Source: Oculatellaceae cyanobacterium bins.114 (GTDB lineage: Bacteria > Cyanobacteriota > Cyanobacteriia > Elainellales > Elainellaceae). From it: a DNA stretch of 43,472 nucleotides. Every line of letters begins with the position of its first letter. The stretch's first letter is position 1. Shown here in pieces: positions 3,136-23,562 of the stretch. The position numbers and the translations under genes were made by a program. Below the pieces are notes generated by a model that did not search any database, was not told where the DNA came from, and worked only from the letters and a program-made list of their open reading frames with translations. The stretch covers positions 1 through 43,472 of the forward strand of contig JANRJA010000125.1 of NCBI GenBank assembly GCA_033764315.1, given 5' to 3'.

Positions 3136-3318
3136 ACTGTGCTCCTGACAACGCATTAAAGGGTGAGTTGTAGTAGGGATGGCACGCGATTTTAAAGAGA
3201 AGTTACAGCACTAAACTTGTACTGTTTGTAGCGATCTGCTGCTTGTGGCGATCTGCTTGTGGCGATCGCACTCCTGCAAACACAGGTGGTCTACAGTACC
3301 GACCCTACCGTGAATCAA

Positions 3319-3372
3319 GAATGAGGTGACTTGAATGAGGTGACTTGGATGGGGGATTTGAATGAGTTATTT
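3319..3372. repeat. Short tandem repeat upstream of ppsA (GAATGAGGTGACTT x2 plus two degenerate copies)
   Basis: gaatgaggtgactt gaatgaggtgactt ggatgggggattt gaatgagttattt read directly. Confidence 0.6.
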
Positions 3373-3452
3373 AGCACTCCAATCACCACCTCTTTTGGTA
3401 TAAGCGAATACTGTGAGGAACTTGTGAGGAAATATGCCGCTTGAGCCAAGTA

Positions 3453-3567
3453 ATACCAACTCCCTAAAGTAGTCTTACAGATGTCCCCTTCGACGACGCT
3501 CCGGGGACGTTGACTGAGCGCAGTCGAAAGCAAGCTGATCAGTAGCTCCAATTTGGAGAATAGGTAT
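3453..3567. mobile_element. MITE-like element with ATACC...GGTAT imperfect terminal inverted repeats and an internal palindrome
   Basis: Left end ataccaactccctaaa; reverse complement of right end atacctattctccaaa; internal ttcgacgacgctc...gagcgcagtcgaa inverted pair. Confidence 0.6.
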
Positions 3568-3615
3568 AACACTTGTACTGGCTCTGTAAATGGCTCTTAG
3601 TCGCAGTGGTCACTA

Positions 3616-6600
3616 CTACCACGGGCTACCCACAAGGGTAAAGCCAGCCCAGTAATAGGGATGGACAAAATCACGATTGCCGCGATCGCCCAGTGTATCG
3701 GGTAAATTTAAAGCAACATCTTCACCATCAGCATTGACAAAGATCAGGCGATCGCCCTGAACCCGCACTCTACCCTCTGCCATTGCCAATTGGGCCTGTC
3801 GCAGAGCTTCTGCCTTAATGGGTTGATGTCGCAACTCTTCATAAAACTCGGTCATCAACCCCAGGGTGCCCTCATCACTGATGCTCCACAGACTAGCTAG
3901 AGCCGTTTTGACTCCGGCTTGTACGGCCAACCCCGCAAAACCCAACTCGGCTGTTTCGCTGCCCAGTGCCATGCGACAAGCACTTAAGACCATCAGATCG
4001 ACGGGAGGGTCATTAAACCCAAGTGTGCGAATCTGGTCGAGCCGTAAGCGAGTATCGCTGAACTGAATATAGGAATTGGACAGATTGCCAGGGACAAACT
4101 CACCGTGGGTTGCCAGATGGACGATGCCAAAGGGACGTTCTAGTCGTGCTGCTTGCAATTGAGCAACTGTGAATTGGTTGCCTTCCAGGGTGCTAGTTTG
4201 TCCTTGCCACAAATCAGAAATTGCTTCTAGTTCAGCGGGAACAGCAGGCAGTGGATCTAACCCAAACCTTTGAAAGTTGGAAGTGCCTGCTGCTAACACA
4301 GAACTGTTGCGGATGTCTCGGTAACGAGTATCCACCAGGTTTAAGCTAGGTATCAATCCAAGGCTGTAATTTTGAATCAGAAAATCCTGTCCATCATGCA
4401 AGGCTGCTAGAGGAATGGTTCGCAGCCCCGAATCAAGAATAAAACCAATATTCTCGATTTCGTTGGCTTTTAGGTCAGCTTCCAGCGGCGTAATGATCCA
4501 TTCATAGAGTTGTTGTGCCGCAGGTAAGTAGGTGCGAGTTCGCACTAAACGGGGGTCAGTTACCGCTGCACGCAGTTGTTGAGAGGCTTGAATCACTCTG
4601 GCACGAGTGGCACCCTGAACCCGATGGTAGATTGTCTCTCCACTGGGGGTGACTAAGAGGAGGGTCAGTTCGTCGGTGTCTTGAGGGGCGATCGCCAGTG
4701 TTGGAGGTTGGGTTGGGTTGGGTCGATCGAGGTGACTGGTAAATTGCTGAGTGGCGATCGCCTCTTGTCGCTCAAATGTAGTGGCGATCGGCACATCAGC
4801 TGAGACAAAACTGACGTAAATCAGAGCGGGTTTAATCCCCGTTTGCTGTTGAATATTGAGCAGGCTGTCATGGGCTAGCGGTTCTTCAATGTCATATTCC
4901 TCTGCATATTCCTCTTCATAGTCATACTCATCGTCATCTCCACAATCAGCAAGCTCACACTCATCGGGGTCTGAATCATCTCCCCCTGTGATCAGTTGCA
5001 GATTACCCCGTGTAATGCTGCCCTCAAACGACTCCCCAACGCTAAAGGTGTCAACTCCATTGGTAATCGCGGCGGCTGTGCCGTTGATTCCAGTAAAGTC
5101 ACTGCCACTAAAGCTTGCCCCAATCACAAACGGTGTCTCGCCATTGCCCCCATGCCGAATGATCACCGTTCCGTTGCCGCTTCCTCCAGCCGCAGAAATG
5201 CTAGACAGTAGACCATTGCGATTGGTAAAAGAGCCTGTTGCCCGGAAGAACCGCTCTGTCGTGATATCAATGATTCCTCCTCTGCCAGTGCTGCTACCAC
5301 TGCTACTACTACTAGTACCGCCATCTGCATTGATGGAGGTCACTTGAATATCGCCATTGGGGTCAAGGGTGACGTTGCCACCATCGCCAAAGGGATTGCT
5401 CGTGTCGATGATTCCGGTGGTGATTGCCTCTCTAGCCGTGATGGTGATATTGCCAGGACTGGCTGCCGCTCTCAAATCACCGGTTGTGACTGAACCAGTT
5501 TGAGAGGTGAGTGTGATTGAGCTGTTATCAGTACTGGAAGTCGTAATATTTCCGACCCGAATATTTTGATTCGCTTCAACTTCAATTTGAATAGCTGCCA
5601 AAGTTGAGCCGATAGAGGTAATGGGGCTAGAGGTAATATTGCCTGTCAAATTGACTGTGGTTCCTGTGAGCCGCAATATACCACCGTAGCCTTCAATGTT
5701 CCCTGCAAATGGTGTATCAGTTGTGAATTGGAAAGTGTCATCTCCTGCTGAACCGCTTAATTCCTGAAAGTTAGTGAAGTCAGTGCGGTTTACAGAGCCA
5801 GCATTTGAACCTGTAATCACCCAGTTATTGTTCTCGTTACTACCAAAACCTCCTCCAACAAGGGTATTGGTGCCATCCCCTCCAGAGATAGCCCCTGTGA
5901 CAAAGCCACTGGAGCTTAAGGTAAATTCATCATTCCCGGATGAACCATTCAAGAGTTGGAATCCAGTGAAGTTGATGAGATTTAGAGAGCCAGCATTTCG
6001 ACCTGTGATAGTCCAGGAATTAATAGAGGAACCTTCTGCTGTCAGAGTGTTTGTACCACCCCCTCCAGAAAGGGTGCCAAAAATGCTGCCACCCTCCTCC
6101 ACCGTGAAGCTATCATCTCCGCCGCCTCCCTGGAGGTCGGAGACTGAGGTAAACCGAATGCCATTAACAGTTCCAGTCTCAACTCCTGTAATTCTCCAAA
6201 CGTTGTCGCTAGAACCGCCGCTGAGTGTAGAAACGCCCTGTACGGACGTAGAGGATGGCACGGAAGGATTGTTACTTTCAACCGTTACCGTATTGCTGCC
6301 ATCAGCTCGCCCGATTAACAGAGAAGTAGTAGCAGTGATATTTTGCAGGTCACTGTTGAGGAGATCTAAAGTGTCAGAGCCGCTGTCTGTGGTGCCACCG
6401 AGGGCGATCGCCTGAGTCGTCGTTCCAGGTTGCAAGGTGACAGTCGTCCCCGTCAGAGAACCCAGTAAATCAATTTCACCCGCTGTCAGGCGAATGTCTC
6501 CTCCTCGAATCGTCCCTCTGGAAATCAGGTTACTGTCGTTGACATTGACCGTTACGTCACCAGACCCTGCATCCAAACGTCCGGGTGTGGCGGTTGCTGA

Positions 6601-8931
6601 AATATAGATCGTCAGTCCCGAATTGGCTCCTGAACCGTTGAGGGCGATCGCACCTCCGTTAGTGGTGATGGGGCTGTCGATCGCCAATCCATCTGGAAAT
6701 ACTTCACCTGTTCTGCCTCCGCTCGTCACAGTTCTGCCAGTACCCGTGCCTGTCGTCGTTCCCGTCAGGCTAATATTTCCTGTGCTTGCGTCAATGCTGC
6801 CATAGGTCAAAATTCCTTCATCCTGGGCACTGGTTCCCGTCAGGGTAATCGTGCCACTAGTAGAGGTGATGTCTCCATCGAAACCCAGTTCAACTCCCCT
6901 GAGTGTGAAATCACCGCTAACCCCACTCCCAGTACTGGTTCCAAATAAGCTGATGTTTCCTGTCCCAGAGTTAATGGCTGAAGAGACGATAACTCCTGTC
7001 CCAAAGGCACTGTCTCCAGTCATGGTAATGTCACCATTGCCTGACGTAACAGATCCTGCAATGCTGATGCCTCGCGGTGACTGATTGGGATCATTTCCAG
7101 TACTGGTTCCTCTCAGGATAATGGCTCCTCCCCCGGAGTTAATCGCTGCCTGCGTAAGAATTCCGTCATTAATGGCACTGGTTCCTGTAAAAGTAATTGC
7201 GCCACCTCCTGAATCAATCGTTGCCGCTCCAAGTGTTCTAATGCCTTGTGCAGAGGAGGCACCTGCAGTTCCTGTGACGGTGATATTACCCCCTTGAGTT
7301 GAGATGGGTTGACGAAGGATGGCTGGACCCGTCGCCAGGAGAGAGAGTGCGCCCCCACTGGTTGTAATGGGTGAACTGACATCGATTGTGTTGGCTTCTA
7401 CCGTCAACCCTACTCCAGGTATGGTGTTAATTGGGGCATTAAATAAAATCAGGTTGGTTGCCTGCAACACTACATTAGTAAGCGCATTATTAATCGTGCC
7501 GTTATTAATGGTGTTCCTGAATCCCGGAGGGTTGGTGTCCGGATCAGCAAACTGGTCGTTAGCGGCGAGTTGTGGGGGTAAATTTGCGCCTACCACAACT
7601 TCAATATCGGTGGGATCTAGCAGCAACGTTCCCACCTGTCCTAAGGGGGCTGTCAGATCCGCAACGCCAGTAAAATCGAGATAGTTCAACCCAGACACTT
7701 CAGCAAAGCCCCCATTGCCGCCGAGGTTGCCGCCCCGAGCCGTCAAGCTGCCATAAAAGCGAGTAGCGTCATCAGCCCAGGTGATGATGCGTCCGCCATC
7801 GCCTTGATTGATGGCATTCGCCGTGATTTGAGAATCAGCACTGACATAGGTACGAGAGGCATTAAACACTGTGCCCTGTCCCTGATAGTCGCCGCCAATC
7901 CGAACCGTACCGCCACCATCGGTTCCAGAGGCATCCAGGTTGGCATTAAGCAGGGCAACGCGATCGCCCAACACATTAATTTGGGGAATCGAAGAGACGC
8001 GATTAGTCACGTCTGTGCGGATGGAGGTATCGAGTGTACCAGAGGCGATGGTTGTTCCGGGTTGGACGGGAACGCTAGTCCCACCCAATTGAATCGTGCC
8101 ATCAGGATTCGTGACGATCGCTGTTGCGGTGGCGATCTCTCCCCCGGTTAACAACTCTGGCAGCGACAGAGGCGAAAATGGCAAGGGATTGATGCCAGCC
8201 TCCCAACTGCCATTGGGTGAGTCTAACTCTAAGCTGAGCAGACTCCCTTCTTGACTGACCCGTAACCGATTGACTCCGGGAATAGCGGCTAAGGTGATCG
8301 TTCCTCCCGGTGCCGATATCGTTCCAGTGTTAACAACTGTTCCCCCAATCAGACCGACACTTTCACCGGGATTCACAGCCAGGTTGCCTGCATTGACGAT
8401 TGCCCCAGCTTGACTCAGGGTAAAGGCAAAACTATCAGGATCGCCGATCAGTGCTGCATAGTTGTTAGAGCCAACGGCATTGAACGTGTTGTTGCCAAAG
8501 CCGATTCCGGTTGCAGTAGTGGCGTAAAAGGAAGCTGGGAGATCTAAGCGGGCATTGGCTCCAAACAAAATTCCTGCTGGATTAAGCAGATATAAATTAG
8601 AGTTGCCGCCAGTGACTTGCAATAAGCCATCGATGAGAGAGGCTTGTCCTCCGGTGACACGTCCCAAAATGTTTTGAATGTCAGGACGCGAGACAAAGGA
8701 GGCAATTTCTGCGGCACTCAAGCCAAACCGCTCAAAACTGTGAAACAAATTGTTGCCAGATTGCGTTCCGCCTGTGATGGTGAAGCGGCTTCCATCCTGA
8801 TCAACCACTGTTCCAGCACTGTTGGGTTCAGACCTGACTGATTGCGCTTGCACTGGCAGTGCTGTTAGTAGGGGCAATATTCCACACGAGACAAGACTGA
8901 GGAACCAGAGGCGGGAGGCGATCGCAGACAT
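3616..8931 (-). CDS. Filamentous haemagglutinin N-terminal (TPS) domain protein with C-terminal CHAT (caspase/HetF-like) protease
   Basis: Signal peptide ending VQAQ; TPS motifs NLFHSFERF and NLYLLNPAGILFG; long Gly/Thr/Ser beta-helix repeats; CHAT dyad IVHLATHG and LMVLSACRMALG; C-terminal HPYYWAGFTLVGSPW. Start ATG 8931 preferred over 8961. Confidence 0.92.
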   Translation of the reverse strand: MSAIASRLWFLSLVSCGILPLLTALPVQAQSVRSEPNSAGTVVDQDGSRFTITGGTQSGNNLFHSFERFGLSAAEIASFVSRPDIQNILGRVTGGQASLIDGLLQVTGGNSNLYLLNPAGILFGANARLDLPASFYATTATGIGFGNNTFNAVGSNNYAALIGDPDSFAFTLSQAGAIVNAGNLAVNPGESVGLIGGTVVNTGTISAPGGTITLAAIPGVNRLRVSQEGSLLSLELDSPNGSWEAGINPLPFSPLSLPELLTGGEIATATAIVTNPDGTIQLGGTSVPVQPGTTIASGTLDTSIRTDVTNRVSSIPQINVLGDRVALLNANLDASGTDGGGTVRIGGDYQGQGTVFNASRTYVSADSQITANAINQGDGGRIITWADDATRFYGSLTARGGNLGGNGGFAEVSGLNYLDFTGVADLTAPLGQVGTLLLDPTDIEVVVGANLPPQLAANDQFADPDTNPPGFRNTINNGTINNALTNVVLQATNLILFNAPINTIPGVGLTVEANTIDVSSPITTSGGALSLLATGPAILRQPISTQGGNITVTGTAGASSAQGIRTLGAATIDSGGGAITFTGTSAINDGILTQAAINSGGGAIILRGTSTGNDPNQSPRGISIAGSVTSGNGDITMTGDSAFGTGVIVSSAINSGTGNISLFGTSTGSGVSGDFTLRGVELGFDGDITSTSGTITLTGTSAQDEGILTYGSIDASTGNISLTGTTTGTGTGRTVTSGGRTGEVFPDGLAIDSPITTNGGAIALNGSGANSGLTIYISATATPGRLDAGSGDVTVNVNDSNLISRGTIRGGDIRLTAGEIDLLGSLTGTTVTLQPGTTTQAIALGGTTDSGSDTLDLLNSDLQNITATTSLLIGRADGSNTVTVESNNPSVPSSTSVQGVSTLSGGSSDNVWRITGVETGTVNGIRFTSVSDLQGGGGDDSFTVEEGGSIFGTLSGGGGTNTLTAEGSSINSWTITGRNAGSLNLINFTGFQLLNGSSGNDEFTLSSSGFVTGAISGGDGTNTLVGGGFGSNENNNWVITGSNAGSVNRTDFTNFQELSGSAGDDTFQFTTDTPFAGNIEGYGGILRLTGTTVNLTGNITSSPITSIGSTLAAIQIEVEANQNIRVGNITTSSTDNSSITLTSQTGSVTTGDLRAAASPGNITITAREAITTGIIDTSNPFGDGGNVTLDPNGDIQVTSINADGGTSSSSSGSSTGRGGIIDITTERFFRATGSFTNRNGLLSSISAAGGSGNGTVIIRHGGNGETPFVIGASFSGSDFTGINGTAAAITNGVDTFSVGESFEGSITRGNLQLITGGDDSDPDECELADCGDDDEYDYEEEYAEEYDIEEPLAHDSLLNIQQQTGIKPALIYVSFVSADVPIATTFERQEAIATQQFTSHLDRPNPTQPPTLAIAPQDTDELTLLLVTPSGETIYHRVQGATRARVIQASQQLRAAVTDPRLVRTRTYLPAAQQLYEWIITPLEADLKANEIENIGFILDSGLRTIPLAALHDGQDFLIQNYSLGLIPSLNLVDTRYRDIRNSSVLAAGTSNFQRFGLDPLPAVPAELEAISDLWQGQTSTLEGNQFTVAQLQAARLERPFGIVHLATHGEFVPGNLSNSYIQFSDTRLRLDQIRTLGFNDPPVDLMVLSACRMALGSETAELGFAGLAVQAGVKTALASLWSISDEGTLGLMTEFYEELRHQPIKAEALRQAQLAMAEGRVRVQGDRLIFVNADGEDVALNLPDTLGDRGNRDFVHPYYWAGFTLVGSPW
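7991..8016. repeat. REP-like palindrome embedded in frame in the TPS-CHAT gene
   Basis: gaagagacgcgattagtcacgtctgt matches intergenic 23563-23588 at 24 of 26 positions. Confidence 0.65.
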
Positions 8932-9088
8932 AAACACCCTCACTATTTTTAAGAAACACACGTTTTAGGAAGCACACGGCTCAATCTTGAAATCTCTCAC
9001 CCTAGTTTTCTATTGCAGGAGAGGCAACAGAAACTTTAAAGCCCTTTTTCTCCAAAAGAAAGGTTGGATGAAGGTAAATGATCCATGC

Positions 9089-9865
9089 CTATCGAGCAGA
9101 ACAGGTTAAGTTAGACTGAGAGGCGATCGCCTCTAGCCCAATCTCGGTTAGGGTCTGATTCCACTTTGTGGTGATCAAATGGTTAGGAGACAGTTGTCTT
9201 GGAGAGGACTGGCAATACGCTGTTCCCAGGGCAGTCATAAATTCGCTCCAGAGTCCGGCTTGTTGGTAAGCGGCGAGTTGGTTTTCTAGTGAAGTTCCGG
9301 TGACAGGGGTTGCGATCGCGGGTGGTGCAATTCGGGATAGTTCCACTTCTGCCACTTTGTTACTAGAGACATCAGTCGAATCACACTGCACCACTAGCAG
9401 CCAGCGATGAGTTGTGCCCACAGTGAGAGCAGGTTCACTATTGGGGAGTCGAATACTAACAATTCCAGCAGGGGTTGGGGGCAAAGATAGAACCTCACGC
9501 TGAGTGTAATAAATGCGACCCGTAGATGGGTCACTGCCGGGTTCGGGTTCTTCGAGCCACAGGGAGGCACTCACAGAGTTGCTAATGGCGTAGGGCACAT
9601 AAAACCAGAGGGTTGGGTGATCTGAAGCGGTTGTGCCTTGAGCAATCAGAGTGCCGTTGGCATCCTGTAGCGGCACCAGGGCAGTTAAAGGAATATCAAC
9701 GTTAGGGCAACTGCCAGCTCGCTGTCCACCCCCTCTGCGATTGCCACTGGGAACTCCCCAGCCCGATGCCATTAAGATAGGTGGTGCAACCTGTGCCAAA
9801 ACAGGGGGAGCTACAACCAAGATTGATAGGAAACAAGTGAGTACCCGTGTTTTCCAGGGGCGCAT
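9089..9865 (-). CDS. DUF928 family exported protein
   Basis: Signal peptide ending VLAQ; RRGGGQRAGSC..PLTALVP, TTASDHPTLWFYVPY, GIVSIRLP, YQQAGLW motifs; typical location between CHASE2 and CHAT genes. Confidence 0.88.
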   Translation of the reverse strand: MRPWKTRVLTCFLSILVVAPPVLAQVAPPILMASGWGVPSGNRRGGGQRAGSCPNVDIPLTALVPLQDANGTLIAQGTTASDHPTLWFYVPYAISNSVSASLWLEEPEPGSDPSTGRIYYTQREVLSLPPTPAGIVSIRLPNSEPALTVGTTHRWLLVVQCDSTDVSSNKVAEVELSRIAPPAIATPVTGTSLENQLAAYQQAGLWSEFMTALGTAYCQSSPRQLSPNHLITTKWNQTLTEIGLEAIASQSNLTCSAR

Positions 9866-9885
9866 AATGTTAAACCTCAGTGACG

Positions 9886-12800
9886 TTATGAGGATGTTTG
9901 GTTAGATAAACGAGCCGTAACGACGAATATACCAGATGCAGAGAAAATCCCAGCTAGAGCAGCCGGAATCAGTGGCAACCACAGACCAGCCAGGATCAGG
10001 CTGAGTAAACAGATGAGATAGAGCAGGGCGATCGCCCCAAACGCGGCTAACCACAGGCGTAGAGGCGATCGAAAGACATACACAATGCTGCCTCCAACTA
10101 TACACCAAACCATAATCCACAGGGCTTCTGCTCCGGTTGACATGACTCGTAGCAAGAGTCGATTGTCTAAAACAGCACTGATCACCTGACTTGTGATTTG
10201 GGCTTGCACCATCACCCCCGGAATTGTGCGATAGGGGGTCGTCAAGATATCTCTGACGTTGTTTTCCGAGGTAACGCCAATGAGAATGATGCGGTCTTTC
10301 CAGGTGCGAGTGACCGATTCAGGAACTTCATCATTTAAAATTTGCCCAATCGTCACTCGCTCAGCGATGTTTTCTGGATCACCATCTGGAGCACGATAGT
10401 TTGCTAATATTTGAAATCCTGATGCGTCAATACCTTGATAGCCATTAGAAAAGCTCATCAGACGTTGAAACTCTACATCTCCCACCCGCAAGCTGCCATC
10501 GGCTGAGGTCACTGGATCTTGAGTCGGGATTCCTCCTCCAGGTTCTAACGCCAAATACTGTTGCGCTACCTGGAAACCGAACGACCATCCTGCTTGACAG
10601 GGAGCGTCTCCAGGTGGAATCGTACGAATTAGCAAGCGACGCACCACTTCATCGTCATCCAGCAAAACATCGTTAAAGGCAACGGTTTCCGGGGCTACTT
10701 CCGGTGGGGGCGCAACCCCACGCTGCTCCACTGACCCATCTTCGCTGATATTTGGGAGTTTACAAATGCTGACCAGACGATCGCTGTTTTGTAACTGTTG
10801 AACTAACGCAGGCACCTCTGGATCAACCGTAAAGTCGCGGTAAAAATCTAACCCAATCACACGAGGTTGGTATTGCTCCAATTTGTCCAGGAGTCGAGTC
10901 AACCCTTCATCGGAGAGAGTTCCCAATCCTTTTTCTCGCCGCTGCACTCGATTGATAATGTCGTCTTCTGTCACTTCAACAATCAAAATTCGGGAGTCAA
11001 CAGGTTCACTGGGGCGCAGTTTTACTAGATGGTCGAATGCCTTTAACTCCCAGGGTTGTAAGATGCCCAGCGATCGCATCATGATCAGCAAAAAAGTTGT
11101 GATCACAGTCGAGATAGCTACAGTACTAACTTTTGCTTGAGGAAAGGGAGATTTGCGGCTGGTCTGAATGTACTTTAACTGCAACGGAGAAGGAGCAGGC
11201 ATCTTGCCGCTTGATTGCGCCAACCACCGTTCTGAGGCAATTAGATCTTTGCCATAGAGCAGATAGCTAGAGTCATAGCCTTCGCGCTCCCACTCGATCG
11301 CGCGTAAGATTAACCGAGTGTGCGATCGCTTGTGTTCTTGATCGCTATCTAAGGTACGAATCAGTTCTCCTAAATTGAGATAAAAGTCATCCTGGCGTTT
11401 ATAAAAATCGATCCATTGCACCGCTGCTAATGCTGGATGTAAGTCAGCTGTGTTCACCGGACGATATAAAACCGTCACAATTCGCTTATTCAACTTCTTG
11501 GCATATTCAACTTCATCCACACAATAGGGAGAATTGATGGAGTTAGGAGAAATCACAAACAAAAAGTGATTGGAGATTTCAATTCCAGCAAAAATCTCTT
11601 TTTGAAAATCAGTGCCAGAGGCAATACTTTCTTGATCAAACCAGGTGCGTTTTCCCTGATTTTGTAAGGCATCATTTAACTTTCGGACAAAATCTGCATC
11701 AGCACGAGAATAGGAAATAAAGACATCCAGCGCAGCTTCATCAGGTTGACGCAAGCTTTCTGCAATAAAGTCTTCTTGCAGAGGGGTAGATGGATGCTGT
11801 GAGTTGTTGTGAGCAAGTTTTAACCAGGCTTCAGCATAACGCAGGTTATTACCTCGCAATAGCAAGCTAGAATTTCGTTGCTGCCGCTGCCATTTTAATG
11901 CTTTTGCTAACAGTAGTTTGTGTTGTCCAAAATAGTCTGCATCATGTCGCAAAATGCGAAATAATTTGCTTTCATCCTGTTGATAGTCTGTGTCTAGTAC
12001 GTTGTCGGTCAGGTCAATATATTGTAGCGATCGCAGTGCTGCTGGAATCTGTTCAGGCTCAGTTTTCTTAATTAATAAAGGAATAATGCGTTTGTTTAAA
12101 GAAAGAGCATAGTCAATTTCCCATTGACAATATTTTGACTGTAATGAGGCTGGAGAGATTAAATAAATAATGTTGTCGGCTTCTTCAATGCCACGGGCGA
12201 TCGCCTCTTGAAAATCGACTCCAGTTTGAATATCGGTCTTACTCCACCAAACAGTGAAACCTTGCCGAATCAGACTTTTAGAAATCAAAGTAGTCGTGAT
12301 GTCGTCTTCTTCTGCATGAGACAGAAACACTTCTGTCATCAAATTATTGGCATTCTTGCGACTTTCTGCGATGTATTCACAGTGCAGATCAGTGGGGATG
12401 CAGGGAGGCTTTTCTTCATGAAACCGAGTCATGAGCCAAGCTTCAGCTTGTTGCCGCTCTGCCCCCAGCAACAAATAGCGAGTCTGTCTGTGTTGCCGCT
12501 CCCACTCTAGTGCTTTTGTAAGCCAGTAGGTGTGTTGTTGCACATAGTCTTGATGTCGCTGAATGACGTTGATCAATCCTGCAAAAGCAGTGTCGAAGTC
12601 ATCCACCTGATCTCGGCAAAAGATCCAGTTGATCTTGGCGATCGCTGGGTGCAAATTGATCAAACTGGAGTGTAATCCTTTTGCTGTAAACTCATCCCAC
12701 TCGGCTGCTAAAGCGTTGGGATGACGCTGTTGCCAGATCTCCTGAGTAATTTGCTCAACGTGCAAAATGGGAATAATCCGCTTATTAAGCTGCACGGCTA

Positions 12801-13047
12801 GTTCAATTTCTTTGCCGCAGTACGAGGAGTTAACAGAGTGCGGCGCAATAATAAATAAAAAATTGTTGGCTTTGGCGATGCCGTCGTCAATCTGGTCTTG
12901 AAAGTCTACCCCTAAAGGAATGTCGTTTTGGTCAATCCAAACTTTATAGCCCTGTTCCGTTAATCTCTGATGGAGTTTGGCAGCAAGGGCTTTGCTATCT
13001 GCCCGTCCGTAGGAAATAAACGCATCTAAAAAATCTCCCACAGTCAC
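9886..13047 (-). CDS. Three tandem TIR domains, a TM helix, an extracytoplasmic CHASE2 domain and three C-terminal TM helices
   Basis: TIR starts DAFISYGRAD, EVFLSHAEED and DVFISYSRAD, each with YCxxE; CHASE2 motifs LQPWELKAFDHL..DSRILIVEVTEDDI, QPRVIGLDFYRD, PGVMVQAQITSQVISAVLD; hydrophobic C-terminus. Confidence 0.92.
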   Translation of the reverse strand: MTVGDFLDAFISYGRADSKALAAKLHQRLTEQGYKVWIDQNDIPLGVDFQDQIDDGIAKANNFLFIIAPHSVNSSYCGKEIELAVQLNKRIIPILHVEQITQEIWQQRHPNALAAEWDEFTAKGLHSSLINLHPAIAKINWIFCRDQVDDFDTAFAGLINVIQRHQDYVQQHTYWLTKALEWERQHRQTRYLLLGAERQQAEAWLMTRFHEEKPPCIPTDLHCEYIAESRKNANNLMTEVFLSHAEEDDITTTLISKSLIRQGFTVWWSKTDIQTGVDFQEAIARGIEEADNIIYLISPASLQSKYCQWEIDYALSLNKRIIPLLIKKTEPEQIPAALRSLQYIDLTDNVLDTDYQQDESKLFRILRHDADYFGQHKLLLAKALKWQRQQRNSSLLLRGNNLRYAEAWLKLAHNNSQHPSTPLQEDFIAESLRQPDEAALDVFISYSRADADFVRKLNDALQNQGKRTWFDQESIASGTDFQKEIFAGIEISNHFLFVISPNSINSPYCVDEVEYAKKLNKRIVTVLYRPVNTADLHPALAAVQWIDFYKRQDDFYLNLGELIRTLDSDQEHKRSHTRLILRAIEWEREGYDSSYLLYGKDLIASERWLAQSSGKMPAPSPLQLKYIQTSRKSPFPQAKVSTVAISTVITTFLLIMMRSLGILQPWELKAFDHLVKLRPSEPVDSRILIVEVTEDDIINRVQRREKGLGTLSDEGLTRLLDKLEQYQPRVIGLDFYRDFTVDPEVPALVQQLQNSDRLVSICKLPNISEDGSVEQRGVAPPPEVAPETVAFNDVLLDDDEVVRRLLIRTIPPGDAPCQAGWSFGFQVAQQYLALEPGGGIPTQDPVTSADGSLRVGDVEFQRLMSFSNGYQGIDASGFQILANYRAPDGDPENIAERVTIGQILNDEVPESVTRTWKDRIILIGVTSENNVRDILTTPYRTIPGVMVQAQITSQVISAVLDNRLLLRVMSTGAEALWIMVWCIVGGSIVYVFRSPLRLWLAAFGAIALLYLICLLSLILAGLWLPLIPAALAGIFSASGIFVVTARLSNQTSS

Positions 13048-13248
13048 AACCGCCTTTCTAAGCTCGTTTAACAGTTCAGGGCAACATTGAAGTATCTCAA
13101 CATTTTGCAGTACCCGTAGTAATATATCAACTGTCTAGACAGCTGATATAGTCCGCGAAGGACGTTTAGCGAAGCTTAGTCGAATCGTGAACTCCGTCTT
13201 GATAGCCGCGAATTCATTCGCAAAAGGCTTAACTTAAATTGATGTTAG

Positions 13249-13923
13249 CTATTCTTGAGTTGTCGTGATCAGCGGATCAGGAACTGGGAAAGAACGCTTT
13301 TCAAGCAACGTAAATTGTCGTAACCCCGCATTATAAGCAAAGACCATGCCTGATTCGATTTCATAGATCCAGGCGTGCAGGTTCAGTTGACCGCTGTGAA
13401 TCTTAGAGCGAATAGCGGGGTAAGTCTCCAGATTTTTAACCTGGGTTAACACGTTCTGTTCAATGGCAATTTTCCAGAGTTGCTCAGGCTCCAGGTCTCT
13501 GTAATTATCTAGAACCAAACGACGAGTCGCTTCACCGTGACGTTTTAGCCAGTCATACACCAGAGGCATTTGCTCTGACAGACTGCCGATTTGTAGCAAC
13601 CCCTTCATTGCCCCACAGTAGGAGTGCCCACAAATAATGACGTCTTTAATATTTAACCCCTGCACAGCATACTCAATTCCAGCGGCTTCAGCACTGTTTG
13701 CAGAGCCATACGCGGGGATGATATTCCCGACATTTCGCATGACAAACAACTCACCCGGTTGGGCTTGAGTAATCAAACAGGGATCAATGCGGGAATCAGA
13801 GCAGGTAATAAATAAAACCTCTGGCGATTGCCCAGCAGATAACCGCTCAAACAACTCACGATGATCGTTGAAGTAATTGTTGTGAAAGGCATTAAGCCCT
13901 TGAATAAGACCTGTGACTGACAT
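13249..13923 (-). CDS. Beta-class carbonic anhydrase
   Basis: Zinc ligands in CSDSR and HSYCGAM; GELFVMRNVGN; AAGGAG ribosome-binding site. Confidence 0.95.
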   Translation of the reverse strand: MSVTGLIQGLNAFHNNYFNDHRELFERLSAGQSPEVLFITCSDSRIDPCLITQAQPGELFVMRNVGNIIPAYGSANSAEAAGIEYAVQGLNIKDVIICGHSYCGAMKGLLQIGSLSEQMPLVYDWLKRHGEATRRLVLDNYRDLEPEQLWKIAIEQNVLTQVKNLETYPAIRSKIHSGQLNLHAWIYEIESGMVFAYNAGLRQFTLLEKRSFPVPDPLITTTQE

Positions 13924-17106: not shown

Positions 17107-17179
17107 CTTAGATCTTACTCTCGTTCCTAGCCTCCTGCCTGGACTATCCTAGTGATAACTTCCCACTCTCCCGTTGACT

Positions 17180-19315
17180 ATGACCGGACTCGAACCCTGG
17201 ATCGCTGGCTTAGCTGGATTGGCACTCGACACTGTCAAAGAAACCGCCAAAGAAGAGTCGGGCGGTACATTAACTCGCTGGCTCAACACTGACCTCGGCA
17301 AAACGGCAGAGCAAATCTTTTATCGAGCTTCTGGGCAATATGCAGCCAACTATCGCGAGCGACACGGCAAGCTCAAAGTCGCCTGTGTGCGAATGGATGA
17401 GCCAATCGAACTGGATCAAATTTACACCGCTGTGCAACTGCTCGATCGCTCGGTGTTGCCCTACTACGAGTCGATCGATGGGCTTCAGGACTTATATCGA
17501 CAGCAAAACAACCGTAGTTTTGGGATTAATCAAAAGACGAGACAAGATGGCATCGCCATTGCCAATCGGGAATCTTACCTATTGGTGTTGGGTGGTCCAG
17601 GTGTGGGCAAGTCTACGTTCCTTCGCAAAGTTGGGTTAGAGGCACTCAAGCGCAAACAGGGAAGCTATCAACCTCAGTGCATTCCCGTTTTTATTGCTCT
17701 GCAACGGTTTCGATCGAGTGACATCACGTTGGAACAGTTGATCGCCAAAGAATTTGAAACCTGTGGCTTCCCGGAACCCGTTGCCTTTGCTCGAGCCATG
17801 CTCAAAAAGGGCAAGTTGTTGCTGCTGTTGGATGGATTAGATGAAGTGCCCAAGTCAGTCGAAGACCATGTGATTACCCAGATTCAAGATCTGGTCGATC
17901 GCTACAGTACCAATCGCTTCATTGCATCGTGTCGTGTGGCGGCTTACAAAGGCGGCTTTCCTCGCTTCAAAGATGTAGCAATGGCACCCTTTGATGATGA
18001 ACAGATTGAGCAATTTATCCATAAACGGTTTCAATCAGAGAAGGATCGAGAAGCACAAACCGCTGAGAACTGCTGGAGTTTATTGAAACAATCGGAATAC
18101 AAGGCAGCAAAGGAACTGGCTCAAACGCCCCTGTTACTCACCCTGCTGTGTGAGGTCTATGACAAATCGCTGCACTTCCCTAAAAATCGCTCGGCTTTGT
18201 ATGGTGAAGCCTTGGATGTGTTGCTCAAAGAATGGGCGGCAGAAAAACGCATCCAGCGTGATCCCATCTATCAAGAATTGAGCATTGAACTGGAACGAGA
18301 ATTATTAGCTGACATTGCCTTTGACAGCTTCAAGAACAACCAATTGTTCTTTGCTAAACGCGATATTACCAGCCGGATCAAAGCCTTTTTAGTCAGCAAC
18401 TTAAATGCCCCAAAACATTTGGATGGGGAACAGGTGCTAGAAGCGATCGAAGTGCAACAGGGCATTTTGGTCGAACGCGCCAGAGATGCCTATTCGTTTT
18501 CGCATTTGACGTTTCAAGAATATCTCACCGCTCAATACATCGTTGATAATCAGCAAATTGCATGGCTAGTTGAGCATCATCTCACCGATGAACGCTGGAA
18601 AGAAGTCTTTTTACTCGTTGCCGGATTGATCACCGGACGTAAGGGAGCCGATGAATTGTTGTTAGCCGTGGAGCACCAGGCTCAAACGTTTATCAACACC
18701 CCTAAACTCAAAGCCTTATTAACCTGGGCAGAGGTTGCCACCACTGGCTCTGAGGGTGAGCAACAACCTGCTGCCAAGCGAGCCGCTGCTATTTTTCTCT
18801 CCCGCTCCCTCGACCGCTCCCTCGACCTCGACCTCTCCCGCTCCCTCTCCCGCTCCCTCTCCCGCTCCCGCTCCCTCGACCTCGACCTCGACCGCTCCCT
18901 CGACCTCGACTTCTACCTCGACCTCTCCCTCTCCCTCTCCCGCTCCCGCTCCCGCTCGCTCTCCCTCGACCTCTACTTCTACCTCTCCCGCTCCCTCGAC
19001 AAAATAAAAATTTTTAAAGCCGTTCAGTTTGGGGTATTGAGACAACAGCTGGAGGCATTGCGAGATCAGATTCCAAATGATGATCAACCGATTGAAGTTC
19101 GTCGTGCCTTTGTTGAGCAGATCTATCAGTGTTGGTGGGATGCGCTGGGTTTGGAGGCAGAAGTTACAAAGTTATCTGACGATGAGGTAAAAGCTTTGGA
19201 GCAATATCTCTATGGCAATTGGTTAATGGTGCAGTGCAAAGAAGCAGCGGTGCGGGTGTCACCTGACGTGTGGGAGGGGATTGAGGGCAGGATGTTGACG
19301 GTTCAAGAAGGGTAA
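17180..19315 (+). CDS. NACHT-domain (STAND) NTPase with C-terminal low-complexity tract and helical domain
   Basis: Walker A GGPGVGKST, Walker B LLLLDGLDEV, SCR, TPLLLTLLC, FSHLTFQEYLTA, WKEVFLL; C-terminal YLYGNWLMVQCKEAA..VSPDVWEGIE. Confidence 0.93.
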   Translation: MTGLEPWIAGLAGLALDTVKETAKEESGGTLTRWLNTDLGKTAEQIFYRASGQYAANYRERHGKLKVACVRMDEPIELDQIYTAVQLLDRSVLPYYESIDGLQDLYRQQNNRSFGINQKTRQDGIAIANRESYLLVLGGPGVGKSTFLRKVGLEALKRKQGSYQPQCIPVFIALQRFRSSDITLEQLIAKEFETCGFPEPVAFARAMLKKGKLLLLLDGLDEVPKSVEDHVITQIQDLVDRYSTNRFIASCRVAAYKGGFPRFKDVAMAPFDDEQIEQFIHKRFQSEKDREAQTAENCWSLLKQSEYKAAKELAQTPLLLTLLCEVYDKSLHFPKNRSALYGEALDVLLKEWAAEKRIQRDPIYQELSIELERELLADIAFDSFKNNQLFFAKRDITSRIKAFLVSNLNAPKHLDGEQVLEAIEVQQGILVERARDAYSFSHLTFQEYLTAQYIVDNQQIAWLVEHHLTDERWKEVFLLVAGLITGRKGADELLLAVEHQAQTFINTPKLKALLTWAEVATTGSEGEQQPAAKRAAAIFLSRSLDRSLDLDLSRSLSRSLSRSRSLDLDLDRSLDLDFYLDLSLSLSRSRSRSLSLDLYFYLSRSLDKIKIFKAVQFGVLRQQLEALRDQIPNDDQPIEVRRAFVEQIYQCWWDALGLEAEVTKLSDDEVKALEQYLYGNWLMVQCKEAAVRVSPDVWEGIEGRMLTVQEG
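18797..19000 (+). repeat. Coding hexamer array of 34 units (CTC/CGC/TTC)(TCC/GAC/TAC)
   Basis: Read directly; encodes LS, RS, LD, FY and LY dipeptides; the third codon base is C in all but one codon. Confidence 0.95.
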
Positions 19316-20762: not shown

Positions 20763-23534
20763 TCAACGAATCTGACGTAATCGCCCCGATTTTGGGTCTG
20801 CCGGACGACGTTTTGCCAAAACCAGCAACGCGATCGCCACAACTCCCATTCCCAAAACATTGCTCGGTTCAGGCACCGAAGCTACATTCAGCGGATTGTT
20901 GGGTTCTGTCAACTCATCCTGACCGTTCTCGACTTCGCGACTAAAGCGATCGCCACTGGCTTCTGCCTCTCGTAACAATTCGCGTTGGCGATCGTTAACG
21001 AGCACCAACATGGAGGAATAGGGAGTCACAATCTTAGTAGTCTTGGCGATCGCATGGACTTGATCGAGTGCAGCCAGTTGGGTCATATCGTGTTGACGAC
21101 TGAGTTTTAGAATCAATTGCCGTGCGGCGAGAGGGGCGAAGGCTGCATCGGTTGAGGGTGGTGTTGCATCAGTGGTAACAGGCTCTACTGACCAGGCATA
21201 GCCATCGGTGACACTGGCAATGGTTTGCCCTAACTGGGCTTCGGTTGCCAGTCGTTGCATCGCCTCTGCGACATCACCCGCCACACCCCCACGACCATCT
21301 TGAACCGCCTGCAACACCTGGTCTGCATAAGCGTGAGGCAGTTTGCCTCCCAAGTGCACCAGCCAGAGGGGAGGGAGTGTATCGGGCAGGTCAACTTCAT
21401 CTTGTGATAGCTCATAACTGCCTTCATCAGTCAGCAGCAACACCGCATCGTAAGCGGTTTGTTCTCGCAACTGAGCAAATTGCCACACTATCTGATCCAG
21501 TTGCAAACTGCCATAAAACGGGGTTTTTGTGGCATCAAATCCCTGAATGTCATTGATGCGTTGAGGTTCTGCCCCGTTAGCGACTGCAACATATAAATCC
21601 ACATCATTTTGAGTGCCCTGTTGAGTCAACCAGTCAAAGGTTTCTCGTAATTCACGCGTGTGATTTGCCATGCTGCGAGAGCTATCTAACACCAGGGCAA
21701 ACCGTTTGTCGTGGGGCAGGGCATACTCCTCGGCTTTGAGTGGACGAGCCGTAATCTGGTATCCTTCGATAGCAGTTTGATGCAGCGTTGGAGTCTGGTG
21801 AGACGTTGGGAGAGAGGCTTCTAGCCAATCTTCAGTGGGCAGGTTCGTGCTGTGTCCATTGCGCTGACGAACCGTCTTAGAGTTCCAAAACACGTTCCGT
21901 TTTTCACTCAAGTGAGGCAATGCCCACCCATCGGGTTGCTGCATCACTTTGTAGGTCATCCACAGATGCAACTGTCCGGGAGTGTTGGTGATTTGAGCGG
22001 GAATTGGAAAGACGCGCAGGCGATATTGCTGAGGACCGACCTGTTCCAGCAATGCTGGATCTTCGGCAACCATGATCGTCGCCCGTTCTACTTCACCGTT
22101 ATACACCTGTTGAGCAGCCCCGCGTGGCGACACAACAAAGGGGAATCGCTGGCTGCGATCGCCATTTGTGCCCAACCACACCCCTGTCACCACGGCACTT
22201 TCGGGCAACGAAAAAGAATAGAAAATCTCTTGATCTTCAAATGTTGGGTTCTCATATTGCTCATACAGTTCAACCTCTGCCCAATCCCCTTGTTCTGTCA
22301 CATTGACCTGTTGTTGAGCAAGGCGCACCACTTCTTGATTGATATTGAGCAACCCCGCTTTGGTCTCATCTCGATTAGAGGTCGATTGCAGCGCATGTTG
22401 AATGGCCGCTCGTTCTGCCCGTTGAATCGGCGCATCAAAAAATTGGGCATAGAGGTGAGCCGCTTTTTCGCCATCGGTGCGATCGCCATTATAGAGAAAC
22501 GGTGAGATCCAGTGGTTGTGGAAGTCTTGCCAGAACTGGGCTTGGGGTTGGCTCAGCCCAAACACCGCCATATACATTTCGCGTAGTTGGTTGCTCTCGA
22601 CCCATGACCCCAGATAACGATAGGAGTGCAAATAGGCGTTGACTAATCCATCGCGAATCACATCGGATTTGGCGATTAACTCTCGTCGTGCCTGAGGAGT
22701 TTGAGCGGGTTGTGCGAGGAGTTGAAAGGCTTGTACTTGTGGTTGTTGCTGCAACAGGCTGAACACCAGACACCAGGCGATCGCCACACTCACCGTACTG
22801 GCGATCGCTTTATTAACGCCATATCGTTCACCAAAAGCTGAGAACACGCGCCACCAAGAATGGCTGTAGAGGCTAATCATGGCAAACGGCATGGCAAAAA
22901 ACAGCGTGCAACTGACCCCAAACAACAGCATGAAGACAGGCAACCACCAGACCGTGGCGATCGGATTGACAATGAAACTGTTCCAAAAAACCCCAAGCCA
23001 CTCAAACTTCAACAAGTTGTAGAGAAAAACACACAGGGCAGGCACCGTGTAAAACGTCAGCAAGACTCCCAAATAGGTGCCAATAATCAGCAACAAGCTG
23101 TGTCCTGCCACTTGCAACCACGCCAGCGATCGCCGACGAGCCACAAACCCTACTAACAACTCAATGGCAAAAACCCCAATACACACCAACACCGTTCCCA
23201 AAATCTGGCTACTGGCGGGGGTTAACTCTCGAATTATAAAAAGGCGAAAAATGCAGAGGGTAACTAGAGGTGCTTCAACCCCATAAAACAGTCGCATCAG
23301 TTTAACGGGGTCTTGTCGTAGGGCTATCCCAGCTCCTGTGCAAACGGTGGGCACTACTAACAATCCCATCAGGCTCAACGCCAGTGTTGGAGGGACTTGA
23401 CCCGCCAATACTTCTTCAAAGAACCAGACCCCCATGATCGGCAGGAGGACTCCATAGGCGATCGTCAAAAAGGTAAAATTCCACAGCCAGAAGATGAGGT
23501 GATAAAAGGCATGGAGCCGATGGTTAGGTTTCAT
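20763..23534 (-). CDS. PEP-CTERM integral membrane protein (TIGR02921-like): multiple TM helices, VIT and vWA domains, PEP-CTERM
   Basis: About 8 N-terminal TM helices; VIT-like FSLPESAVVTGVWLG..EDPALLEQ..YRLRVFPIP; MIDAS DSSRSM and LLLTDEG; C-terminal VPEP-hydrophobic-KRR. The ORF-track extension to 23582 translates a REP element. Confidence 0.88.
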   Translation of the reverse strand: MKPNHRLHAFYHLIFWLWNFTFLTIAYGVLLPIMGVWFFEEVLAGQVPPTLALSLMGLLVVPTVCTGAGIALRQDPVKLMRLFYGVEAPLVTLCIFRLFIIRELTPASSQILGTVLVCIGVFAIELLVGFVARRRSLAWLQVAGHSLLLIIGTYLGVLLTFYTVPALCVFLYNLLKFEWLGVFWNSFIVNPIATVWWLPVFMLLFGVSCTLFFAMPFAMISLYSHSWWRVFSAFGERYGVNKAIASTVSVAIAWCLVFSLLQQQPQVQAFQLLAQPAQTPQARRELIAKSDVIRDGLVNAYLHSYRYLGSWVESNQLREMYMAVFGLSQPQAQFWQDFHNHWISPFLYNGDRTDGEKAAHLYAQFFDAPIQRAERAAIQHALQSTSNRDETKAGLLNINQEVVRLAQQQVNVTEQGDWAEVELYEQYENPTFEDQEIFYSFSLPESAVVTGVWLGTNGDRSQRFPFVVSPRGAAQQVYNGEVERATIMVAEDPALLEQVGPQQYRLRVFPIPAQITNTPGQLHLWMTYKVMQQPDGWALPHLSEKRNVFWNSKTVRQRNGHSTNLPTEDWLEASLPTSHQTPTLHQTAIEGYQITARPLKAEEYALPHDKRFALVLDSSRSMANHTRELRETFDWLTQQGTQNDVDLYVAVANGAEPQRINDIQGFDATKTPFYGSLQLDQIVWQFAQLREQTAYDAVLLLTDEGSYELSQDEVDLPDTLPPLWLVHLGGKLPHAYADQVLQAVQDGRGGVAGDVAEAMQRLATEAQLGQTIASVTDGYAWSVEPVTTDATPPSTDAAFAPLAARQLILKLSRQHDMTQLAALDQVHAIAKTTKIVTPYSSMLVLVNDRQRELLREAEASGDRFSREVENGQDELTEPNNPLNVASVPEPSNVLGMGVVAIALLVLAKRRPADPKSGRLRQIR

Positions 23535-23562
23535 AGGAAGAGGGTGGAAGGGTAAGAGGGGT

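Follow-up and report, generated by a model that had tools for sequence, protein, structure and literature searches.

A cyanobacterial gene cassette linking a three-TIR CHASE2 receptor with a DUF928 protein and a CHAT protease: a possible envelope-sensing module

DUF928 genes are linked to CHASE2 and CHAT genes

We describe a three-gene cassette in a 43,472-nucleotide stretch of DNA (the window, by which we mean the whole stretch analysed) that makes up positions 1 to 43,472 of contig JANRJA010000125.1 in the assembly of Oculatellaceae cyanobacterium bins.114 (GCA_033764315.1). The cassette encodes a receptor with three TIR domains and a CHASE2 ectodomain (TIR3-CHASE2), a small DUF928 protein, and a protein in which a two-partner secretion (TPS) domain is joined to a caspase-like CHAT protease (TPS-CHAT). 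DUF928, CHASE2 and CHAT genes were found together far more often than chance allows. We tentatively interpret the cassette as the TIR-output version of a conserved cyanobacterial envelope-sensing module composed of TpsA, a CHAT protease, periplasmic DUF928 and a CHASE2 receptor, an interpretation we consider quite possible though short of probable.

The cassette occupies the minus strand as three consecutive co-oriented open reading frames (ORFs): the receptor gene (9886-13047, 1053 aa), the DUF928 gene (9089-9865, 258 aa) and the TPS-CHAT gene (3616-8961, 1781 aa counted from a GTG codon). The original prediction, made from the letters of the window alone, had described three co-oriented genes with 20 bp between receptor and DUF928, and the ORFs lie at exactly those coordinates. 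Specifically, 20 bp separate the receptor stop codon from the ATG of DUF928, which lies downstream, while the gap between DUF928 and the TPS-CHAT ORF is 127 bp, or 157 bp if TPS-CHAT begins at the ATG at 8929-8931; the latter start is the more plausible, as it gives a cleaner signal peptide. No terminator-like site was detected in either intergenic gap in a scan of 3200-13400, which was itself uninformative, with promoter-like sites (7 versus 10.3 expected) and terminator-like sites (7 versus 9.8) both below shuffled sequence.

An alignment of the receptor was used to find 79 related loci, and these were annotated with our own hidden Markov models (HMMs), built from Pfam-verified domains of the host genome; the annotation was checked with Pfam on L028, L086, L091 and other loci. 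Among the 32 loci that encode a TIR3-CHASE2 receptor, DUF928 was present in 30, directly downstream on the same strand in 27 and divergent in three. The two loci without it were L054 and L033, where the contig ends 233 bp past the gene. CHAT (21/32), TPS (18/32) and ShlB (16/32), the last denoting a ShlB/FhaC-type (TpsB) transporter, were also found at these loci, all four accessory genes being present at ten of the 32. At nine loci all five genes shared one strand, in the order TPS-ShlB-CHAT-receptor-DUF928 at eight of them and with ShlB first at L050. The commonest full order was TpsA-TpsB-TPR-CHAT-receptor-DUF928. Loci encoding TIR3 proteins without CHASE2 contained DUF928 in one of 47 cases (L086) and CHAT in two (L060 and L086). 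At L086 (3296-14131) a TPS gene, DUF928 and TPR-CHAT directly adjoin the gene for a TIR3-WD40 protein of the cytoplasm, and the locus lacks CHASE2; this exceptional arrangement does not fit a receptor model.

In the same-genus genome G101 the receptor, DUF928 and TPS-CHAT genes were found in the window order, with 87, 74 and 61% identity, respectively. When the two genomes were compared, identity was 83-93% for the catalytic and sensor domains, 87-93% for the terminal TPS and CHAT regions of TPS-CHAT (CHAT domain, 87%) and 74% for the DUF928 body. The cassette is flanked in the window by housekeeping genes encoding a pyruvate phosphate dikinase-type (PPDK) enzyme, a beta-carbonic anhydrase, a GDSL lipase and a pseudouridine synthase, of which the PPDK and carbonic anhydrase genes were not found in the 20 kb around the G101 cassette. 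Taken together, the linkage in related loci and the order kept in G101 support the proposal that the three genes form a conserved functional unit.

In five other complete cyanobacterial genomes the distances between members of the same families were compared with random placement. Within 3 kb of a CHASE2 gene lay 25 of the 43 DUF928 genes (random mean 0.6, maximum 4 in 1000 trials), and 23 lay within 10 kb of a CHAT gene (random mean 3.2, maximum 9); 16 were near both, nine near CHASE2 only, seven near CHAT only and 11 near neither. The linkage of DUF928, CHASE2 and CHAT is far above chance, in agreement with the co-occurrence cited as established in the original prediction, and DUF928 is a specific neighbour of CHASE2 receptors. 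Being linked to both CHASE2 and CHAT, DUF928 shows the pattern of a go-between.

The accessory genes are shared with receptors of other outputs

The host assembly (G000; 251 contigs, 90.7% complete) was surveyed with Pfam on ORFs around family matches and with a whole-genome pass using our own HMMs. This returned 12 matches for DUF928, 15 for CHASE2 (in 14 genes), six for ShlB (five of them clear), 21 for CHAT, 16 for TPS and 43 for TIR_2. Eight of the 12 DUF928 genes adjoin seven of the 14 CHASE2 genes, and the cytoplasmic parts of these seven DUF928-linked receptors were an adenylate cyclase (contig C97), a histidine kinase with a receiver (C113), a caspase/CHAT-like domain after DUF1822 (C85 and C199), no recognised domain (C215) and TIR3 (C81 and the window). 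The same accessory set thus accompanies cyclase, kinase and caspase-like receptors, indicating that TIR is one interchangeable output. The cassette is accordingly not peculiar to TIR outputs: a general TpsA/TpsB/CHAT/DUF928/CHASE2 module exists in versions with different outputs, and the cassette is one of these. Because the set is common to cyclase, kinase, caspase-like and TIR receptors, solving one such system would inform many.

Contig C113 carries ShlB, TPS, TPR-CHAT, a truncated DUF928 and the CHASE2-kinase in a row; the DUF928 match in this copy (134761-135369; L006:12782-13321) crosses three stop codons. Contig C81 holds a paralogue of the window cassette in which the TPS protein (2186 aa) and TPR-CHAT (904 aa) are encoded by separate, overlapping genes. 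The CHASE2 genes without DUF928 in the host genome include Ser/Thr kinase and GGDEF types. On C177 (L011:4490-8681) a gene for a FecR-domain protein directly precedes a CHASE2 hybrid histidine kinase without DUF928, which echoes a Burkholderia operon encoding a LysM-FecR protein and a CHASE2 protein.

The receptor combines three TIR domains with a CHASE2 sensor

Pfam assigned three stretches of the receptor to TIR_2 (276 bits, E 5e-83) and matched CHASE2 (PF05226) with 186.6 bits against a cut-off of 26.3. The TIR domains cover residues about 10-100 (12748-13020), about 240-356 (11980-12330) and 442-553 (11389-11724). They are followed by a predicted transmembrane (TM) helix at residues 640-662 (11062-11130) with basic residues before it, by the CHASE2 ectodomain (10090-11100) and by three further predicted TM helices at residues 974-1047 (9907-10128). 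Topology and signal assignments here and below are Kyte-Doolittle hydropathy estimates, a heuristic rather than a dedicated predictor. By this estimate the receptor has no N-terminal signal, one hydrophobic helix before CHASE2 and three after it, which would place the TIR domains inside and CHASE2 outside, consistent with the topology originally proposed.

Each TIR domain keeps a glutamate three residues past a conserved cysteine. Glu80 (codon 12808-12810) was present in all 73 aligned homologues, Glu310 (12118-12120) in 72 and Glu512 (11512-11514) in 63, with glutamine at position 512 in the remaining ten. In alignments with PDB entries the residue falls opposite the glutamate of a Toll-like receptor (TLR), of Cat1 and of a bacterial TIR protein, and we take it to be the NADase catalytic residue. 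The receptor TIRs bear the hallmarks of enzymatic TIRs. Scores against the NCBIfam equivalogs for Thoeris and retron-TIR proteins stayed far under the respective cut-offs (ThcB4, 112 versus 220; retron-TIR, 96 versus 600). Assignment of the cassette to a listed defence system was rejected, since PADLOC matched the receptor only at the level of its TIR domains and matched neither DUF928 nor TPS-CHAT.

After each TIR comes a helical spacer of ~75-130 residues (about 100-230, 360-435 and 555-630), in which a W...LL.G..L..A..W pattern recurs; the pattern is conserved in the 73-sequence alignment and has no Pfam match. The AlphaFold2 (AF2) model of the CHASE2 ectodomain was confident (pLDDT 90.9). 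It found no PDB match by Foldseek at E <= 0.001, and the best VIA-align Z was 4.5; from this model no solved fold can be assigned to CHASE2, although novelty of the fold does not follow.

A word-based search with the receptor returned 1472 matches. Among the matches listed were many TIR3-CHASE2 proteins of ~1045 aa, from Nostoc, Anabaena, Trichormus, Calothrix, Coleofasciculus, Symploca and others, as well as relatives of about 1500 aa and proteins in which the TIR3 block, ~60% identical, is fused to WD40 repeats. A cluster look-up placed ABA23783.1 (Trichormus variabilis ATCC 29413) and BAB77941.1 (listed under Nostocaceae) in the receptor family, so that experiments in genetically tractable strains are feasible.

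DUF928 carries a conserved Arg/Gly tail

The second gene product matched DUF928 (PF06051) with 115.9 bits against a cut-off of 26 and starts with a hydrophobic signal-like segment ending VLAQ. Residues 37-53 (9707-9757) carry the motif G-x-P-x-G-R-R-x-G-G-G-x-R-x-G-x-C. The motif quoted in the original prediction, NRRGGGQRAGSC, matches this conserved N-terminal motif of the family in column counts over 114 sequences. R49 (codon 9719-9721) was found in 104 of the 114, C53 (9707-9709) in all 114 and C161 in 110, and C53 and C161 are likely disulfide-bonded. In the AF2 model (pLDDT 85.2, pTM 0.80) the signal peptide is followed by a flexible tail bearing the motif, an eight-stranded Ig-like sandwich (66-178) and a bundle of four helices (193-248). 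Foldseek returned weak generic beta-sandwich matches for this model, with TM-scores below 0.5.

DUF928 evolves faster than the receptor: a word-based search returned 13 matches, compared with 2113 representative clusters by exhaustive HMMER. Among the matches listed, DUF928 occurred in at least 30 of 101 genomes sampled from the phylum and in none of 35 from family f18.

The third gene joins a two-partner secretion domain to a CHAT protease

Pfam matched an N-terminal TPS domain (PF05860, 130.9 bits) and a C-terminal CHAT domain (PF12770, 228.8 bits) in TPS-CHAT, and NCBIfam matched the NPxG haemagglutinin-type domain (TIGR01901, 76.2 bits). The TPS domain (8239-8820) contains LFHSF and NPAG motifs, the latter at residue 127. 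The CHAT domain (3625-4524) retains the His/Cys dyad that had been reported for it, at His1619 (codon 4105-4107) and Cys1662 (3976-3978), both of which were invariant in the 36 CHAT domains compared. The protein starts with a hydrophobic signal-like segment ending PVQAQ. The beta-helix middle (residues 251-1370) is 49% identical to that of the G101 orthologue, with indels, and a strongly acidic stretch (residues 1328-1361) lies ahead of the CHAT region.

TpsA and CHAT are encoded by separate adjacent genes at most loci and are fused in the window, G101 and L091. In a CHAT-domain tree the window CHAT was sister to the fused TPS-CHAT of L091, within a TPS-CHAT clade that is separate from the TPR-CHAT clade to which the canonical cassettes contribute their proteases. 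This position suggests that the fused protease replaced the TpsA, TpsB and TPR-CHAT trio in this lineage, and the fusion itself is evidence of the Rosetta-stone type that TpsA and CHAT work together. The tree also bears on an alternative that we consider improbable, namely that receptor and DUF928 alone are the unit and that TPS-CHAT is a neighbour left over from a larger island, without a signalling role at the window locus. The other host members of the TPS-CHAT clade (C27, C41 and C205) are solitary, the window CHAT falls outside the clade of the canonical cassettes, and 127-157 bp separate TPS-CHAT from DUF928, all of which such a leftover would explain. A leftover would not be expected, however, to keep its place in G101 despite differing flanks, and the sister CHAT of L091 also adjoins a TIR3-CHASE2 and DUF928 pair. 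Furthermore, L026 and L027 show receptor-DUF928-TPS up to the point where their contigs end, and 21 of the 32 TIR3-CHASE2 receptors come with an exported CHAT, whatever its type.

All five TPR-CHAT paralogues inspected in the host genome carry a signal or anchor at the N-terminus. Most relatives encode the protease as a Sec-exported TPR-CHAT that lacks a TPS domain, and CHAT therefore probably has its site of action in the periplasm, not outside the cell. The original prediction was thus right to call the protease exported, while the place of action it implied, outside the cell, is probably the periplasm in most relatives.

The layout of TPS-CHAT, with a TPS domain, a long variable beta-helix (49% identity and indels against G101) and an enzymatic C-terminal domain, recalls CdiA. 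We nonetheless consider it highly improbable that the cassette serves contact-dependent competition, with TPS-CHAT as a delivered toxin, DUF928 as a periplasmic immunity protein or decoy, and the receptor as an alarm for foreign protease. The CHAT of most cassettes, a separate Sec-exported TPR-CHAT without a TPS domain, could not be delivered in this way; the CHAT domain shows good conservation (87%), which polymorphic toxin tips do not; and DUF928-CHASE2 pairs are also found at loci that lack a nearby CHAT.

DUF928 and CHASE2 covary and pass a complex prediction weakly

Covariation was analysed in 31 receptor-DUF928 pairs, among which mean pairwise identity was 0.44 for DUF928, 0.54 for CHASE2 and 0.70 for the TIR block. 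Given TIR distances, DUF928 and CHASE2 distances had a partial correlation of 0.755, with none of 2000 permutations as high, whereas the value for DUF928 and TIR, given CHASE2, was 0.148. DUF928 therefore covaries with CHASE2 beyond the TIR part of the same protein, as had been anticipated for cognate pairs. At the 20 loci with TPR-CHAT the partial correlations given TIR were 0.735 for DUF928-CHASE2, 0.725 for DUF928-CHAT and 0.849 for CHASE2-CHAT. The exported parts evolve in concert, and no single contact is isolated by covariation. For the six DUF928-CHASE2 pairs of the host genome a Mantel r of 0.70 was obtained (15 of 720 permutations as high), which is suggestive only and could equally come from co-duplication.

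The strong CHASE2-CHAT covariation (partial r 0.85) is also what inside-out signalling would give, in which receptor and DUF928 would sequester or release a periplasmic CHAT that cuts the TpsA filament off, with the cytoplasmic domain as the input. The genes themselves, a periplasmic protease beside a two-partner-secreted filament and a membrane protein, resemble a system of the LapD/LapG type. We regard this arrangement as very unlikely: the cytoplasmic parts fused to CHASE2 in the host genome are typical outputs (cyclase, kinase, GGDEF and TIR), none of them a known second-messenger receiver, and we know of no TIR domain that acts as an input.

A complex of the CHASE2 ectodomain (660-975) and mature DUF928 (27-258) was predicted alongside three controls. 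It scored 0.54 (runs 0.54, 0.49 and 0.59), against 0.00 for the best control, a verdict of weak support; the partner pLDDT was at least 73 and the runs shared at least 51% of contacts. In the calibration of the tool, 116 of 157 solved complexes and two of 215 mismatched pairs reached the mark, and the scores at 0.60 or under came from only 18 of the 157 solved complexes and from both passing mismatches. Given the strong prior from gene linkage, we read the prediction as modest support; the proposed DUF928:CHASE2 complex passed, but weakly. The best structural match of the DUF928 model was the solved C-terminal domain of MtxA (4z29_B), likewise composed of an Ig-like and a helical part, which aligned over both subdomains (150 residues, rmsd 4.0) with a Z of 8.6 that barely exceeds the stated background of 7 to 8. 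Covariation, the weak pass in complex prediction and the match to MtxA together lend indirect support to binding of CHASE2 by DUF928.

The narrow margin of the MtxA match is one of several points that weigh against the envelope-sensing module as we propose it. A DUF928 profile searched against PDB sequences gave three chance-level hits (E 0.3 to 2.3), with MtxA absent. The complex score falls in the tool's own weak band, and no interface was returned. Covariation was rejected as proof of a specific DUF928-CHASE2 contact, as CHAT covaries as strongly with both and the DUF928-CHASE2 partial correlation drops to 0.35 given CHAT (20 loci). Shared rate shifts of exported proteins could yield the same covariation, and so could homogenisation of the TIR block or its recombination with the TIR3-WD40 paralogues (~60% identical). 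In the five other genomes, besides the 11 of 43 DUF928 genes near neither partner, 37 of 61 CHASE2 matches lay more than 5 kb from any DUF928 gene. Three of the four TPS-CHAT genes of the host genome are solitary, with no CHASE2 or DUF928 nearby, and a TPS-CHAT protein that left the cell whole would keep its protease from periplasmic DUF928. Finally, no ShlB/FhaC-type transporter gene was found across the 43-kb window. Both DUF928 and TPS-CHAT have signal-like starts, as predicted, but the label 'secreted' therefore depends on a TpsB from another locus; the host genome has five clear ShlB genes elsewhere.

A possible signalling mechanism

If the cassette is an envelope-sensing module, its parts may work as follows. 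A TpsA beta-helix filament would pass through a TpsB channel, encoded elsewhere in the case of the window cassette, and be exposed on the cell surface. CHAT would work in the periplasm, where the window CHAT, fused to the C-terminus of TpsA, may be held back in the way that the C-terminal regions of FhaB and CdiA are. CHAT activity would change in response to an event at the surface, and CHAT would act on DUF928 as substrate or adaptor, most likely at the conserved Arg/Gly N-terminal tail. The altered DUF928 would engage the CHASE2 ectodomain differently, and the changed association of receptors would bring the three N-terminal TIR units together. The TIRs could then hydrolyse NAD+ or produce a nucleotide signal, upon which that cell of the filament would stop growing or die, and the cassette may thus turn cell-surface events into an NAD-consuming alarm. 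The sequences themselves show which genes are present, that their linkage is conserved, that three of the parts are exported, that the catalytic residues are kept and that the exported parts covary; binding of CHASE2 by DUF928, proteolysis of DUF928 by CHAT, signalling from outside to inside, activation of the TIRs by a ligand and an NADase output are the parts of this scheme that we infer.

Some observations make individual steps plausible. In the accessible text of a study of Anabaena PCC 7120, the CHAT domain of HetF cleaves PatU3 strictly after arginine and only at Arg117 (PMC9457339). HetF is the only cyanobacterial CHAT protease for which a site has been mapped, and its cleavage after arginine makes the Arg-rich motif of DUF928 a plausible site. 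In the host genome the outputs of CHASE2 proteins lie N-terminal to the first TM helix or C-terminal to the last, depending on the protein, and output on either side of the sensor argues for a mechanism based on proximity or oligomerization. TIR enzymes are activated by proximity or oligomerization. The presence of the same TIR3 block on cytoplasmic WD40 proteins marks TIR3 as a portable effector.

A further alternative, which seems to us unlikely but serious, is that DUF928 is a permanent, unprocessed co-receptor subunit that determines which ligand CHASE2 recognises or links CHASE2 to the cell wall or the outer membrane; CHAT would then mature or release the TpsA filament, and the receptor would sense some other signal. 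Periplasmic partners that look unprocessed are found beside other CHASE2 proteins: a LysM-FecR protein in Burkholderia (PMC5192318, in the portion of the paper available), the FecR protein beside the CHASE2 kinase at L011, and MtxA beside a CHASE2 cyclase. DUF928-CHASE2 pairs also occur with no CHAT nearby (contig C97, and nine of the 43 DUF928 genes in the five other genomes), and CHAT occurs with TpsB or TpsA but without DUF928 or CHASE2 (C166, C250, C71 and C90). A structural subunit would not by itself account for the linkage of DUF928 to CHAT, which is about as frequent as that to CHASE2 (23 of 43 within 10 kb, seven with CHAT only). Nor does it readily explain why the best-conserved part of DUF928 is its flexible Arg-rich tail, for which a protease site or docking peptide is the better fit.

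The envelope-sensing module can be extended into a full receptor-type TIR pathway of filamentous cyanobacteria, and we think it rather unlikely that every part of this would hold. The filament would report contact or damage (phage, predator or shear), a periplasmic caspase-like protease, either tethered to the filament or fused with it, would cut the Arg/Gly tail of DUF928, processed DUF928 would oligomerise CHASE2, and the triple TIR would form an NADase assembly, so that the affected cell would be killed or silenced and the filament protected.

Relation to known systems

In the Easter-Spaetzle-Toll cascade of Drosophila an extracellular protease and a small secreted protein act ahead of a receptor with a cytoplasmic TIR domain. 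The cassette had been likened to this cascade, and the comparison, with a protease, a small secreted protein and a single-pass-type receptor with cytoplasmic TIR, holds for the logic alone; of the defining features of the Toll/Spaetzle pathway only the TIR domain is shared, and the cassette does not belong to that pathway. The Toll ectodomain is a leucine-rich repeat (LRR) domain, whereas Pfam found no LRR match in the window receptor, whose ectodomain is CHASE2; Spaetzle is a cystine knot, whereas DUF928 is modelled as an Ig-like sandwich with a helical bundle; and Easter is a clip serine protease, whereas CHAT is a clan CD cysteine protease. Furthermore, the window TIRs, with their conserved glutamate, are expected to be enzymes, while the Toll TIR is an adaptor scaffold, and no common descent is evident beyond the TIR fold. 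If the full receptor-type TIR pathway outlined above holds, the logic of protease, pro-ligand and TIR receptor would have arisen independently in bacteria.

Thoeris ThsB, Cat1, AbTir and SARM1 share the TIR fold with the receptor at the sequence level, and the glutamate is conserved at the position aligned with Cat1 and other TIRs. Unlike those proteins, which are soluble and respond to signals in the cytoplasm or to filament assembly, the window receptor would carry three tandem TIRs tethered to an extracytoplasmic sensor. We know of no characterised bacterial transmembrane receptor with a TIR output, and a literature search found none; the cassette would provide one if the mechanism holds. 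What TPS-CHAT has in common with the FhaB/FhaC and CdiA/CdiB systems is a TPS domain at the N-terminus, bearing motifs of the NPxG and LFHSF types, then a long beta-helix and, at the C-terminus, a domain with a function of its own. It differs in ending in a CHAT protease and in having no cognate TpsB gene adjacent, and its retention in the periplasm is assumed.

CHASE2 sensors beside exported proteins have been described in other bacteria. In the mtx cluster of magnetotactic bacteria, mtxA, whose product has a signal peptide, is followed by a conserved gene for a CHASE2-adenylate cyclase (PMC4439547, available text). The genomic context is that of DUF928, an exported protein encoded next to a CHASE2 receptor, although a profile search detected no sequence relation between DUF928 and MtxA. 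Similarly, the 'BiofilmReg' operon of Burkholderia encodes a LysM-FecR protein and a CHASE2 kinase (PMC5192318), and CyaD1, CyaD2 and CyaK of Sinorhizobium meliloti work with the outer-membrane protein NsrA, the signal being a protein (PMC13001267), in so far as the accessible parts of these papers describe them. On the same partial descriptions, all three systems pair a TM-CHASE2-3TM sensor with, or make it dependent on, an exported protein. Their receptors make cAMP or phosphorylate a regulator, whereas the window receptor has three TIRs N-terminal to the sensor, and neither a protease nor a two-partner secretion pair figures in those descriptions.

HetF resembles the window protein as a cyanobacterial CHAT-domain protease with a specific protein substrate, but in the available text its CHAT domain cuts a cytoplasmic cell-division inhibitor and its TPRs are periplasmic (PMC9457339), whereas the window CHAT is exported. 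The EACC2-caspase-CHASE2 systems, which occur with an ECF sigma factor and DUF1822 (Kaur, Burroughs, Iyer and Aravind 2021, PMC8195603), have CHASE2 as the variable, extracellular sensing part of an effector protein of the conflict or apoptosis type. Their effector is a cytoplasmic caspase with EACC2, not TIR, and DUF928, CHAT and two-partner secretion go unmentioned in the portion of the paper at hand. Sister loci of the EACC2-caspase type in the host genome (L003 and L005) also carry DUF928.

A CHASE2-DUF928 neighbourhood in Nostoc punctiforme is mentioned in the literature, in a source available in part. Our literature search, which lay outside subscription journals and supplements, found no description of the cassette, nothing on a CHAT domain with two-partner secretion, or with filamentous hemagglutinin in cyanobacteria, and, in the accessible text of a paper that mentions both CHASE2 and a TIR domain, no TIR3-CHASE2 architecture. 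The cassette is conserved and, it appears, undescribed. CHASE2 ligands are still called unknown in the parts available of two papers (PMC10581220, PMC5192318). The cassette offers a candidate partner for CHASE2, DUF928, and a candidate upstream protease, and if the full receptor-type TIR pathway holds, DUF928 would be the long-sought ligand class for CHASE2 sensors in general.

Surrounding genes

Farther out, the window contains more genes of the STAND/NACHT and caspase types. A 713-aa STAND protein with NACHT and NCH2 domains is encoded at 17174-19315 (plus strand), 4 kb from the cassette. At 27642-33588 (plus strand) a DUF1822 gene is followed by one for a 1593-aa protein with a weak CHAT/caspase match, an nSTAND1 NTPase and WD40 repeats, a pair that resembles the EACC2-caspase systems with DUF1822 as far as the available text describes them (Kaur et al. 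2021, PMC8195603). The minus strand encodes a 939-aa VIT-domain protein, followed by ORFs of 240 and 228 aa without a Pfam match (20763-25039), and, at a distance of 21 kb from the receptor gene, a SLOG cluster-4 (LOG-like) protein (34648-35148). In some TIR systems, signals derived from nucleotides are bound by SLOG domains. Finally, a cyclophilin-type peptidyl-prolyl isomerase fused to RTX calcium-binding repeats is encoded at 41042-42463 on the plus strand.

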